64,000 nucleotides of DNA from NCBI GenBank assembly GCA_958295725.1, contig OY282368.1:1384001-1448000 (forward strand). The letters run 5' to 3'. The DNA is from an uncultured Alphaproteobacteria bacterium. GTDB lineage: Bacteria > Pseudomonadota > Alphaproteobacteria > UBA2966. The notes beneath the pieces are model-generated. The model saw only the letters and a list, made by a program, of their open reading frames with translations, was not told the DNA's origin and made no database searches. The translations under genes were made by a program, and so were the position numbers. Each line of letters opens with the position of its first letter. Position 1 is the first letter of the stretch. Positions 15,028 through 18,686 of this stretch are shown here, piece after piece.

Positions 15028-17703
15028 ATGACCTTGCTTGAGTATTACGAACGGTACGGAAGCCGAATCACTCAAGAGTCTGAGCGGCTCTTTGTCGATG
15101 AGTTTCTATATCCATTGTTAGGCGAGGAAATCGGTGCCGTTGAGCCGCAGTACCCCTTTCTGGACCGCACGGGCCGCGCGCGACGTATCGACTTCGTTTG
15201 CAAGGGGGCAGAACGATCTCTCGCACTTGAGGTAAATGGAGAGACCTACCACGCGGAAGGGGTCATCCCAAACGAGATGTTCGACGATAATCTCTTCCGC
15301 CAGAACGAAATTCTGCAGGCGGGCTACCATCTCGTTCGGTATTCCTACAGCCAGTTAAAGGATCCCCACTGGCGACCACTCATAATGGAGTCGCTGCGCG
15401 ACGCGATAGCGCTTGCGGCACCGGATCTACTTTCGACATATACGCTTGAACCGAACGAAATTCAACGCGAGGCTCTTGCCGCCCTTGAGTTTCACCGCAA
15501 CACGATGGGCTGGACGCGGGGCATCGTGGTCATGCCCACCGGCACGGGCAAGACGATCCTCTCCGCACTTGTCGCCCGACGTGTGGGTGGGAAGGTGCTC
15601 TTCCTTGTCCACCGACTCGATATTCTGTCCCAGAGCGTAGACGCCTATCGGGTGGTTTGGCCGACTATGAAGCCAGGCCACCTGACGGGGGACGCGCGGC
15701 AGGATGAGCTCGATTGTGATGTGCTCTTCGCCTCCAAGGACACACTGCGGCAACCCGCTGAGCTGATGCGTTTCAGTCGCAAGCATTTTGCCTGCATCGT
15801 CGTGGACGAGGTGCATCACGGTCAAAGCCCGACCTACCAAGAGATCATCAACTATTTCACGCCGCGCTTCATGTTAGGTATGACGGCTACACCCGATCGA
15901 CTGGATCGCAAGGACATTTTCGAACTTTTCGACTACAATAAAGTCTATGAAATCTCTATGCATGAGGTCATCGAGCGCGGACATCTCGTACCGTACACCT
16001 ATTACGGCCTGACCGATGACATCGATTATTCTAAGGTCCGCTATAAGAATAACCGCTACCTAGTCCACGACCTCGAACGCACGCTCATCGTCCCGGAACG
16101 CAATGCAGCGATCCTTGAAGCTTATTTGGAGAAGGGCAAGGGCGACAAGGCTATTGGCTTTTGTGTTTCCATCACTCACGCTGAACGTATGGCGGCGTAT
16201 TTCAGGGAGAACGGCATTCCGGCGGAAGCTGTACATTCACAAACTTCCGAACGCGACAAGTTGGTGTCTGATTTCCGCGAGAACAGATTCAATGTGGCTT
16301 TTACGGTGGACATCTTCAACGAAGGCATCGATTTCCCGAATGTGCGTGTGCTCCTGTTTCTGCGCCCGACCGAGTCGCGTACGGTCTTCGTACAGCAATT
16401 AGGACGCGGTCTACGCCTGTCCCCGGGCAAGGAACGCGTTCGCGTTCTCGATTTTATCGGCAACTACAAACGCGCTAACCTGATCCGTGATTACCTCGTC
16501 AAGAAGAAGAATGTCGTCGAGGCCGGCGAAGGGAATGTCCGCAGGCGCAAGATAGAATATATCTATTCGACGGGTTGCGAGATCCACTTCAGTGAAGAGG
16601 TGGAAGAAATCCTCAACCGTCAGGACGCCGAGACGCTGGGGGTCGGCAAGCTCGAACTCACCCAAGCCTACTACACTCTCGCGGAGACATTGGACCGCAA
16701 GCCCACACGCGCAGAAATCGACGCGGAGGGGCAGTACGCCTCCGCGCGCTACGCACAGGTGTTCGGCTCTTGGTCACAGTTTATCCGAGAGATCGGCGAA
16801 TACACCGAAGCCAGCTATCACTACCCGCAGGGTACACATGTAGGACATATCCTCGCGATCCTCCGGTATTTTGGATTGCCGGACCGAGATGGTACGCCCT
16901 TTGACAACGCGTATATTCGTTTGCGCGGGAAGTTCGGGGATGGACGCATCGGTACTTACCAGCGACAGGTGCGTTACAAACTTCAAGCGGCGACGGAACT
17001 TGGCCTTTTGCGGGACGATCGGGTCACCCCGGGAAACGAGGATGTGTTTCCCGAACTCACGCCATTGGGGCATGAAGTGCGCTCGGCGCTGCTTCCGGTA
17101 CTCCGACAGCTCGATTTGACCCTACCGCCCGGCGGCGAGGGTATCCCTTCATCGCGAATGAAGGAGAGCGAACGCGTTTACAACGGGGCAGTCCGCAGTC
17201 GGATCGACGCAGACGCGGCCGCGGCTAAAATCATCCGCCGCACCATTCTCGGCATGCCCGCCGCACGCCAGATGCTGGCCTTTCTCTACCACGTCGCACG
17301 TCGGGAAACGGTTGCGCGCTCTTTCATCTACGAGAATTTCTTTCAAACCCCATTCGTGCAACGCTTCATGGAACAGGAGGGTATTGAGGAGGCCAGCCCC
17401 GCAGCTTCCAGACGGCGTTGCCCCTTCCTGCTCAACCTTCTGGATGCGCTAGGCGCGATCGATTCGGGCAGCGGAGACATAACGGTTCGTCAAGTTGTGG
17501 TCACGCCCGATCTGGTGCGACCTTATGCGGGCGAGGACGAAGCGCGCTCCCGCAATCGCGCGCAGGCGATGGCGGCTGCGTGGCCCGATCGCTCCGAAAC
17601 GTTGTCGTCGGAAGACTTGAGCATTTTGCGTGAACTTTTCGGTGCAGAGATATTCACGCCTTCCTATCCACTCGCTCGTCTACCGCTCATAGGGGAACCA
17701 TGA
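15028..17703 (+). CDS. Fusion protein: N-terminal DUF559/Vsr-like PD-(D/E)xK nuclease motif, SF2 (ResIII/DEAH) helicase core, FGSW repeat-like segment, ~300-aa unknown C-terminal region
   Basis: [24 protein letters not shown]; Walker A MPTGTGKT; DEAH box VVDEVHHG; motif III GMTATP; motif [10 protein letters not shown]; [16 protein letters not shown]. Sampled 60-nt lines give 37% and 52% GC versus a mid-60s backbone. Confidence 0.8.
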
Positions 17704-18686
17704 TGGCGAATCGTTCGCACAGGAACCAGGGTCATATCGGCATGAACACTCTGCGCAAGGCCGGCAAAACACACCGGTCGGGCGACGGGCTGACCACAAC
17801 CTGCACGGAAACGGTTCATGCCGTCATCGTAGCGGACTGCCTCGACCTACTCCGATCCTTGCCAGACTCCTCCGTGCAGCTCGTCATCTGCGATCCGCCG
17901 TACAACATTCTCATGGCGGATTGGGACAAGCATGTAGATTATGTCTCGTGGGCACGGCTCTGGATCGACGAGACATACCGAGTTCTTGGTGACAAGGGGA
18001 ATCTTGTTATCTTCGGCGGCCTGCAATATCAAAGAGAAGCGGGAAGCGGCGACCTTCTTACTATCCTGCATGACATACGACAGCGCCGGATTTTCAATCT
18101 GGTGAATATGATTATTTGGAACTATCCCAATGGAATGAGTGCACATAGATTTTTCGCTAACCGACATGAGGAAATCATCTGGCTGTCCAAAACTTCGAAG
18201 TATTTCTTCGATCTAGACGCTGTGCGCGAACCGTTTGACGAGGAAATAAAGCGCGCCTATATGAAGGACAAGCGCCTTCGTCCGGAAAGCATCGAGAAGG
18301 GCCGAAATCCTACAAATGTTTGGCGAATGTCGCGACTTAATGGCAATTCAAAGGAACGGGTTGGACATCCCACGCAGAAGCCGAAAGCACTCATCGAACG
18401 CCTCGAGAAGGCTCTATCCTACGAGGGATCAGTAGTCCTTGATTTCTTCGCCGGCAGTGCCATCACCACTCGCGTAGCCATGGAACTCGGGCGTCACAGC
18501 ATTTCGTCCGACCTAAGCCCCGATATTTTGTCTTACTTTGCCAAGCACATGAAGAACTGGCAGGAACCAGATTTCCTGGAACAGCGGATTCCCTACCGCC
18601 TACTGGATCGAAATACTCTGGAATATCATCCCATCTTTGGAAAGAATTCGAAGGTTCCAACGGGAGTCTCGACAGCCGCTGAATGA
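17700..18686 (+). CDS. Beta-class DNA methyltransferase (N6-adenine or N4-cytosine; DPPY type)
   Basis: Motif IV ICDPPYN precedes motif [20 protein letters not shown] motif present. ATGA start/stop overlap with the helicase gene. Confidence 0.85.

Follow-up and report, generated by a model that had tools for sequence, protein, structure and literature searches.

We analyzed a 64,000-nucleotide (nt) stretch of DNA, here called the window, from an uncultured Alphaproteobacteria bacterium (contig OY282368.1 positions 1,384,001-1,448,000, assembly GCA_958295725.1) and find that it carries two overlapping genes that match no named restriction-modification (R-M) system. The first gene, R, encodes an 891-amino acid (aa) protein that joins a predicted nuclease domain and a helicase-like motor to a rare C-terminal module, and the second, M, encodes a close homolog of the GAATTC methylase M.RsrI. 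With moderate confidence, we propose as the best explanation that R and M form an undescribed two-gene, ATP-dependent R-M system. Its restriction enzyme would resemble SauUSI and the Type ISP enzymes in layout, would recognize GAATTC with the C-terminal module of R and would be blocked by methylation. The pair and the domains of R are as follows, with the evidence for each in parentheses.

15028-17703 (including the stop codon), plus strand: R gene, ATG start, encoding the 891-aa protein with nuclease, motor and putative reader (open reading frame (ORF), translation, homologs).
17700-18686, plus strand: M gene, ATG start, encoding a 328-aa beta-class N6-adenine DNA methyltransferase (homology to M.RsrI).
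17700-17703, plus strand: ATGA overlap of the R stop and the M start (sequence).
15028-15432, plus strand: aa 1-135 of R, predicted PD-(D/E)xK nuclease domain, DUF559/REase_MTES-like (AlphaFold2 (AF2) model, Foldseek, sub-threshold Pfam match).
15433-16467, plus strand: aa 136-480 of R, SF2 helicase-like ATPase motor (Pfam, PDB, PADLOC).
16468-16797, plus strand: aa 481-590 of R, helical linker with one HNH_repeat (Pfam, SauUSI alignment).
16798-17700, plus strand: aa 591-891 of R, family-specific C-terminal module, proposed DNA target-recognition domain (AF2, profile search).

A predicted nuclease domain, an SF2 motor and a helical linker in one protein

In a homolog search with R, 7998 of 8000 scored candidates had E <= 0.001, a count that does not specify the domains matched; among the matches listed, all 119 other proteins cover 91-100% of the 891-aa query at 59-84% identity. 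Public annotation describes these homologs just as “DEAD/DEAH box helicase”. The start codon of R is the one expected from its relatives, 20 of which begin at the same residue when aligned. A preliminary description of this locus, made from the sequence alone, had quoted a number of motifs in R, and all of them are present in the 891-aa translation. The SF2 motifs among them are borne out by Pfam, which recognizes ResIII (E 4.5e-33, aa 140-291) and Helicase_C (3e-16, aa 362-464). The motor has its Walker A lysine at K175, DEVH at 260-263, TATP at 286-289 and a further motif at 456-463, and these SF2 motifs and ATPase residues are invariant in 41 homologs. The best match of the motor in the PDB is SauUSI (7clg; E 6e-67, aa 129-562), followed by RadD and a Type I HsdR. 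Similarly, the PADLOC model mREase_IV is matched with E 1.7e-68 over profile positions 219-574 of 953, which is the helicase part only.

The linker that follows the motor holds a homing-endonuclease-associated repeat, as the preliminary description had suspected (Pfam HNH_repeat PF18780, E 7.9e-11, aa 543-590). The SauUSI alignment ends at aa 562, corresponding to SauUSI residue 641, and the linker aligns with the start of the SauUSI coupler, which spans residues 618-805 (PMC7913695). The nearest outgroup helicase that we observed (locus L056, 4912-10235) is 34% identical over the motor, carries a DUF3427 domain like SauUSI and is without the N-terminal nuclease region. It adjoins genes for a TIR-domain protein and a peptidase-like protein, in surroundings that look like a defense island.

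The N-terminal domain was less easily placed, and we call it a PD-(D/E)xK nuclease on weaker evidence than the rest of the protein. An AlphaFold model of aa 1-140 built with 33 homologs has a predicted local distance difference test (pLDDT) score of 89 and the alpha-beta-beta-beta-alpha-beta topology of restriction endonucleases. When this model was compared with known structures by Foldseek, nearly all of the best matches were PD-(D/E)xK nucleases, including the R2 restriction-like endonuclease, NGO0050 (3hrl), DrdV, Bax1, TnsA, I-Bth0305I and AbaSI. The match to 3hrl, the endonuclease-like protein NGO0050, which we take to be a DUF559 protein, has probability 0.99, a template modeling (TM) score of 0.69 on the target and E 0.029. 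Within the domain, the candidate catalytic residues E19, D55, E68, H75 and Q92 are invariant in 41 full-length homologs, and N70 is replaced by D in just two of them. The fold and the conserved residues thus agree with the earlier reading of this region as a DUF559/Vsr-like nuclease. The family assignment itself is less secure, in that aa 1-135 have no Pfam DUF559 match and REase_MTES_1575 (E 2e-4, 21.8 bits) stays below its 38.2-bit gathering cut-off.

The methylase is predicted to mark GAATTC

The preliminary description had recognized M as a beta-class methyltransferase from its DPPY and FAGSA motifs. These lie at aa 65-68 (DPPY) and, further on, at aa 249-253 (FFAGS, within FFAGSA), and the protein matches Pfam N6_N4_Mtase (E 1.7e-52) and the PADLOC model MTase_II PDLC03327 (E 1.3e-133). 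We can now go further than the class: M aligns end-to-end with M.RsrI (PDB 1eg2; E 1.9e-128, aa 2-302, 62% identity) and has no extra domain relative to it. M.RsrI is the GAATTC N6-adenine methylase of Rhodobacter sphaeroides; it is unrelated in sequence to M.EcoRI, and the two enzymes methylate the same site. Given that M is a close homolog of M.RsrI, its predicted site is GAATTC, and it most likely marks this sequence with N6-methyladenine (m6A) on both strands of the host DNA. Both M.RsrI-like and the unrelated M.EcoRI-like methylases accompany relatives of R, and hence the common factor is GAATTC methylation. We find no EcoRI-fold endonuclease in the window (best E 3.9 in a tblastn search with an EcoRI-like protein). 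The TGA of R (17701-17703) overlaps the ATG of M (17700-17702) in the context ccATGATGg, as had been noticed before, and from this overlap we predict that the two genes are translationally coupled.

The pair recurs in bacteria and archaea

To see how general this arrangement is, we scanned one genome per species, using the representatives of 185,579 species, and found 55 related loci (identified by L numbers) in many bacterial phyla and several archaea. We regard as informative the 46 loci with 1 kb or more of sequence beyond the helicase gene, as we call the homologs of R. In 34 of these 46, the helicase stop and the start of an M.RsrI-like gene (52-68% identity) are separated by -14 to +9 nt, and in another eight such a gene is more distant, on the other strand or convergent, or behind a broken helicase gene. 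The remaining four (L021, L022, L024 and L025) have no M.RsrI-like gene and carry EcoRI-type R and/or M genes or fragments of them instead. L025, for instance, has an R.EcoRI-like gene (1ckq, E 7e-136) and an M.EcoRI-like gene (PF13651, E 1.9e-132), both of them complete, directly behind the helicase gene. M.RsrI-like and M.EcoRI-like genes are both present in L028, L038 and L050. Because the same gene pair is found in dozens of unrelated genomes, its occurrence here is not due to chance.

A second sample, seeded with the methylase and independent of the helicase-seeded scan, consists of 66 metagenome loci with at least 300 nt of upstream sequence. The helicase gene is immediately upstream of the methylase gene in 24 of them and is present in partial form in one more, and an EcoRI/RsrI-like endonuclease gene is found in 12, upstream in all but one. 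Roughly 29 of the 66 have neither a helicase nor an EcoRI-like gene, and on inspection they share no obvious neighbor. These partnerless M.RsrI-like methylases (loci L063-L138; for example L079, L081, L095, L099 and L121) form clades of their own in the methylase tree, and they may be orphans or be paired with a further, unrecognized partner. In a neighbor-joining tree, computed without support values, the endonuclease-linked methylases, M.RsrI included, fall into at least three clades nested among the helicase-linked ones, and the restriction partner appears from this to have been exchanged repeatedly on one methylase family. We also find loci in which an intact methylase gene stands beside a broken or truncated helicase gene (L036, L040, L054, L055, L116 and L127), the one-sided decay that an R-M unit should show.

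A portable C-terminal module

The C-terminal module of R opens with an invariant motif of the kind S[YF]xYPQGxHxGH and is modeled by AF2 with a pLDDT of 90 and a predicted TM score of 0.89. Searching 1.84 billion representative proteins with a profile of the module gave only 145 matches, most of them either fragments or, at 883-941 aa, full-length proteins organized like R. In four matches of 394-480 aa, the module is N-terminal, is followed by a C-terminal HNH nuclease and keeps the S[YF]xYPQGxHxGH motif. Their genes all lie next to DNA methylase genes:

L139, 90-1520: module-HNH gene.
L143, 5001-6185: module-HNH gene.
L140, 1059-2285: module-HNH gene.
L141, 587-2029: module-HNH gene.

One of the proteins, P0170, is encoded convergently with a gene for a 56%-identical M.RsrI-like methylase. 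A second, P0205 (locus L143), is encoded between a gene for a 55%-identical M.RsrI-like methylase and an R.EcoRI-like gene. We suggest that the module-HNH proteins are probably undescribed Type II-like restriction enzymes, and that two of them are likely specific for GAATTC. In L143 (3556-7138), the order is an R.EcoRI-like gene, a 62-codon 3' remnant of an M.RsrI-like gene, the module-HNH gene and a complete M.RsrI-like gene; this arrangement suggests that recombination within methylase genes lets one system take the place of another with equal specificity.

The preliminary description had left about 300 aa at the C-terminus of R unassigned. In terms of known folds this is still the case, but the region can now be described as a portable module that is also fused to HNH nucleases. 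A precedent for such a distribution is the SRA reader domain, which is common to small SRA-HNH enzymes such as TagI and to the C-terminus of the motor-nuclease SauUSI (PMC12707154). The module shows both contexts, though it is not an SRA domain, and by this parallel we take it to be a DNA target-recognition domain. Given that its partners are methylases, the module would read unmodified DNA.

One lineage with an altered module

Three of the loci without an M.RsrI-like gene belong to one lineage, in which helicase cassettes with a swapped or diverged C-terminal module are present in three metagenome-assembled genomes:

L021, 7654-11929: helicase cassette.
L022, 258-4588: helicase cassette.
L024, 141-4222: helicase cassette.

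Compared with the M.RsrI-linked protein of L034, the L022 and L024 proteins are 88-89% identical over aa 1-480 (89% for L022) and just 47% identical over aa 591-891. The break in identity is sharp and lies near aa 600, where the invariant ASYHYPQG has become MNY[LI]FPPS. By comparison, in M.RsrI-linked pairs that are 80-90% identical over aa 1-480, the identity of the module is never below 55%. The module thus shifts together with its methylase context. In both L021 and L022, a broken M.EcoRI-like gene is split around the cassette, its 5' part lying upstream and its 3' part downstream, and in L024 the M.EcoRI-like gene appears truncated. Only in this lineage do we see an intact helicase gene with no intact gene for a GAATTC-type methylase nearby. 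We also observe that the cassette of L021 and L022 is upstream of an R.EcoRI-like gene that has no obvious start codon. In place of an M.RsrI-like gene, the helicase gene of all three loci is followed by a conserved ORF for a 62-aa acidic protein (18 D/E, 4 K/R) that is 87-90% identical between members; this small protein may be an inhibitor or immunity factor.

Comparison with known systems

The earlier suggestion that R and M form a non-canonical R-M system matching no named one is upheld by our searches and by the conservation of the pairing across phyla. PADLOC returned no system-specific model, giving a generic Type II methylase for M and, for R, matches to motor proteins (SauUSI-type Type IV, Type I and others) that are limited to the helicase. 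NCBIfam gave no equivalog above cut-off, and full-text searches of the literature found no description of the architecture or of the pairing. Hhe, a helicase plus Vsr nuclease, was also considered and likewise has no PADLOC match here.

The pair shares individual features with several classes of R-M system. Like Type I HsdR and Type III Res, R has a ResIII/SF2 motor, and NCBIfam matches the EcoAI-family R subunit over the helicase with E 1.1e-32; however, this match scores 113 bits against a cut-off of 550, and no hsdM or hsdS gene is present between 13.8 and 20.2 kb of the window. The PADLOC REase_III matches reach just E 3e-5 to 2e-4. In Type III systems the gene order is mod-res and the nuclease of Res is C-terminal, whereas here R precedes M and the nuclease is N-terminal, so the preliminary description was right that both orders are inverted relative to Type III. 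The domain order is not unusual in itself, as nuclease-then-helicase is the normal order in Type I HsdR, the Type ISP enzymes and SauUSI. With the classical RsrI/EcoRI Type II systems, the pair has in common an M.RsrI-homologous methylase, and EcoRI-type genes share loci with the helicase gene; in those systems the cutter has the EcoRI fold, whereas here the restriction partner is the 891-aa motor protein. In CglI, the R subunit is a phospholipase D (PLD) nuclease with a B3-like DNA-binding domain and the methylase is a C5 enzyme. CglI and NgoAVII likewise need a helicase-like ATPase beside an ordinary methylase for the restriction of unmodified sites, but in CglI the nuclease (R) and ATPase (H) are two proteins (PMC5737866); we saw no sequence match to CglI.

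SauUSI is the closest solved relative of the motor of R, and its domains follow one another as we propose for R: a nuclease at the N-terminus, the SF2 ATPase, a helical coupler and a reader at the C-terminus (PMC7913695). SauUSI has a PLD nuclease and an SRA/DUF3427 reader, cuts DNA containing 5-methylcytosine (5mC) or 5-hydroxymethylcytosine (5hmC) and has no cognate methylase, whereas R has a predicted PD-(D/E)xK nuclease, a different putative reader module and a coupled methylase gene. Consistent with this, R has no PLD family match (the SauUSI-type matches start at aa 129-138) and no DUF3427 match. The Type ISP enzymes LlaGI and LlaBIII have an N-terminal PD-(D/E)xK (Mrr-type) nuclease, an SF2 motor and a coupler, the order found in R, and they act on unmodified sites and translocate with ATP (PMC4666363, PMC2790903). 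However, Type ISP enzymes carry a gamma-class methylase and a recognition domain in the same chain, whereas M is a beta-class Type II enzyme encoded on its own and the 891 aa of R contain no methylase domain; the motor matches LlaBIII only weakly (E 2.8e-4). The MANTIS (Gao_RL) system offers a precedent for our proposal, as its MtsD is a SauUSI-like motor-nuclease that restricts unmethylated DNA and is paired with an adenine methylase, but it needs MtsA (AAA+) and MtsB, and a large BREX-type methylase hemimethylates asymmetric sites (bioRxiv 10.64898/2026.09.23.753747). MtsD has a PLD nuclease and no reader, and the island that carries R and M has no MANTIS genes and no PADLOC match to MANTIS; the unit conserved here consists of just two genes, and its methylase has 328 aa and is M.RsrI-like. 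The pair thus lacks the features that define Types I, ISP, III and IV as well as MANTIS, and the methylase is all that it has in common with the classical RsrI system.

Genomic setting of the pair

The window has a GC content of 0.65-0.72 outside a low-GC island of about 5.4 kb, in which R and M lie and where GC is about 0.47-0.61. The island and its neighbors are as follows.

14800-20200, no strand: low-GC island carrying the pair (composition profiles).
13110-13811, plus strand: ABC-transporter ATPase gene, left of the island (Pfam).
13929-14651, plus strand: 240-aa ORF, catalytic C-terminal part of a tyrosine recombinase (Pfam, translation).
19262-20128, minus strand: 288-aa ORF, convergent with the methylase gene (ORF list).
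About 20240-20760: AhpD/carboxymuconolactone-decarboxylase-like ORF, right of the island (reading of the translation by eye only); beyond it is a DctP-family solute-binding gene.

We regard the island as horizontally acquired. The recombinase ORF matches Pfam Phage_integrase (E 1.8e-12, profile positions 24-150 of 172) and its N-terminal half is missing; it is probably a remnant of the element that delivered the island or of an older integration at the site. Its GC content is host-like although it borders the low-GC island. The island borders have no tRNA genes and no convincing flanking direct (att-like) repeats. Scans for promoters (2, versus 2.4 in shuffled sequence) and for terminators (10, versus 6.2 with a standard deviation of 2.5) gave no clear excess. 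A 662-aa minus-strand ORF at 13041-15029 has no family match and was rejected as a mere shadow of the ORFs for the ABC transporter and the integrase on the plus strand.

Elsewhere, the pair is found in other kinds of setting. In L058, an 81%-identical relative forms a bare two-gene insert between housekeeping genes. In the acidobacterium Tunturiibacter gelidoferens (L001, 1-7900), the pair is beside SSB, RepB primase, ParB and ArdC genes, and from these neighbors appears to be carried by a plasmid-like or conjugative element. Taken with the low-GC island and integrase remnant in the window, the ParB/ArdC/RepB element and the bare insert indicate that the pair is mobile.

The preliminary description had also raised the ORF at 19262-20128 as a possible part of the system, which our results do not support. 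As a third component it was rejected, with no Pfam, PADLOC or NCBIfam match and no counterpart in any of the related loci. We find just five homologs (37-59% identity) in 5.8 billion clusters, and the two that we looked up are in unrelated variable regions, one with ArdC and an IS1595 transposase and the other with an Eco57I-type gene. The ORF carries a PD...EVC motif that resembles a nuclease signature.

Proposed mechanism and rival explanations

In the mechanism that we propose, the M.RsrI-type methylase would methylate GAATTC on both host strands, and the C-terminal 300-aa module of R would bind GAATTC that is unmethylated. Binding would be relayed via the helical linker to the SF2 motor, which would hydrolyze ATP and translocate on double-stranded DNA. 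The N-terminal PD-(D/E)xK nuclease would then cut away from the site; the analogy to SauUSI and the Type ISP enzymes suggests that it probably does so as a dimer or upon collision of two motors. What the sequences show directly are the identities of the domains, the linkage of the genes, the conservation of catalytic residues and the co-variation of the module with the methylase context, whereas GAATTC specificity, read-out of DNA by the module, ATP dependence, translocation and the mode of cleavage are predictions. A bolder version of this proposal, on which our judgment is evenly balanced, is that the pair represents a new R-M class. On that account, a SauUSI-like translocating nuclease that once read methylated DNA would have come to read unmethylated GAATTC by way of a recognition fold not seen before. 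The small HNH enzymes would be built from the same fold, the classical RsrI system would have arisen, as one of several branches, by exchange of this partner for an EcoRI-fold enzyme on the same methylase family, and R would be the first ATP-dependent, motor-driven enzyme of EcoRI specificity.

Several observations weigh against our proposal. The Foldseek support for the nuclease fold, while consistent, is weak, with no match below E 0.014. The module has no significant structural match (best E 0.86 in the PDB and 0.39 in BFVD), and the weak matches are to winged-helix proteins and the recognition domains of the Type IIS enzymes BpuJI and FokI; the case for its binding DNA therefore rests on context and on a weak winged-helix resemblance. 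GAATTC is not depleted in the window, where 13 sites compare with 6.4 expected from base composition, though a stretch of 64 kb is too short for a verdict. Two of the four module-HNH proteins adjoin large methylases that are not RsrI-like, and the module is thus not tied to one methylase family. Lastly, the tight coupling of the two genes and the change of the module upon loss of the M.RsrI-like gene fit a protein-protein partnership equally well. A recognition domain that was altered or silenced after protection was lost would show such a change, and so, equally, would a domain that docks on the methylase.

This last point leads to the main rival explanation, which we consider unlikely but worth serious attention: the methylase supplies recognition, as in Type III systems and MANTIS, and the module docks on a DNA-bound M.RsrI-like methylase that loads or activates the motor-nuclease. 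Co-translated partners are suggested by the ATGA overlap and by the spacing of -14 to +9 nt in 34 loci, and the L022 module has diverged from that of L034 (47% identity versus 89% over aa 1-480) where the M.RsrI-like gene is absent. It is also established that Type I HsdR binds its methylase via a C-terminal helical domain. In MANTIS, exchanging the recognition region of the methylase switches the specificity of the effector, and deletion of the methylase gene is not toxic (bioRxiv 10.64898/2026.09.23.753747). Against docking, L025 has a standard module, including LTEASYHFPQGTH, with only an unrelated M.EcoRI-type methylase nearby, which argues for direct read-out of DNA. The HNH fusions argue likewise, since in them the module precedes the nuclease in small proteins that look like recognition-plus-cleavage enzymes. 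Moreover, M has no extra domain compared with M.RsrI, and its close relatives serve classical EcoRI-like endonucleases.

The other explanations are further from the data. It is highly improbable that the large gene is a selfish, homing-like element that inserts in or beside GAATTC methylase genes, so that linkage merely records the insertion site. The cassettes of L021 and L022 inside a broken M.EcoRI-like gene, the “homing endonuclease associated repeat” in the protein, the L143 module-HNH gene beside a 3' methylase remnant and the patchy distribution across phyla, archaea included, are what such an element would leave. However, in 34 loci the gene is ahead of an intact, tightly coupled methylase gene and not inside it; insertion within a methylase gene is confined to one recent lineage (accessory ORF 87-90% identical), and these loci are accounted for just as well by one R-M system replacing another that has the same specificity. 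In addition, known homing endonucleases do not feature an SF2 translocase whose motifs are all conserved. We give hardly any credence to the idea that R is a modification-dependent (Type IV, SauUSI-like) or methylation-independent defense nuclease that happens to lie beside an unrelated methylase, even though its best PADLOC and PDB motor matches are SauUSI-type enzymes and the nearest outgroup, L056, has a DUF3427 domain. These matches are confined to the helicase, and R lacks the PLD nuclease and the SRA/DUF3427 reader that SauUSI has. A GAATTC-type methylase gene is adjacent in 42 of the 46 informative loci and EcoRI-type genes are present in the other four, and a nuclease directed against m6A-GAATTC would kill a host that encodes that methylase beside it. 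Next to no weight falls on a role in methyl-directed repair or strand discrimination comparable to dcm-vsr or Dam-MutH. The DUF559/Vsr-type nuclease motif and the overlap of vsr with dcm, which is much the same as that seen here, are in its favor, but the rationale of Vsr, the repair of T:G mismatches from 5mC deamination, does not apply to an N6-adenine methylase. Nor does repair fit mobile islands with sporadic horizontal spread (55 loci among the representatives of 185,579 species), a helicase gene that decays while the methylase persists, and a partner that alternates with EcoRI-like restriction endonucleases.

Implications for restriction-modification systems

The pair fits none of the four types of the current restriction scheme cleanly, as it combines a Type II methylase and a motor-nuclease like those of Types I and ISP with a domain plan like that of Type IV. 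If our proposal of an ATP-dependent GAATTC system is true, then one sequence and one methylase family would be served by three unrelated cutters: an EcoRI-fold enzyme, a reader-HNH enzyme and a reader-motor-nuclease. This would provide a clean natural case in which to ask what makes an ATP-driven motor worth its cost to cells when a simple cutter is available, and it would show the evolutionary swapping of restriction partners. The module would be a new sequence-reading fold whose target is known, which would help research on DNA recognition and perhaps enzyme engineering. Lastly, proteins that are now labeled just “DEAD/DEAH box helicase” would become recognizable as products of defense genes.

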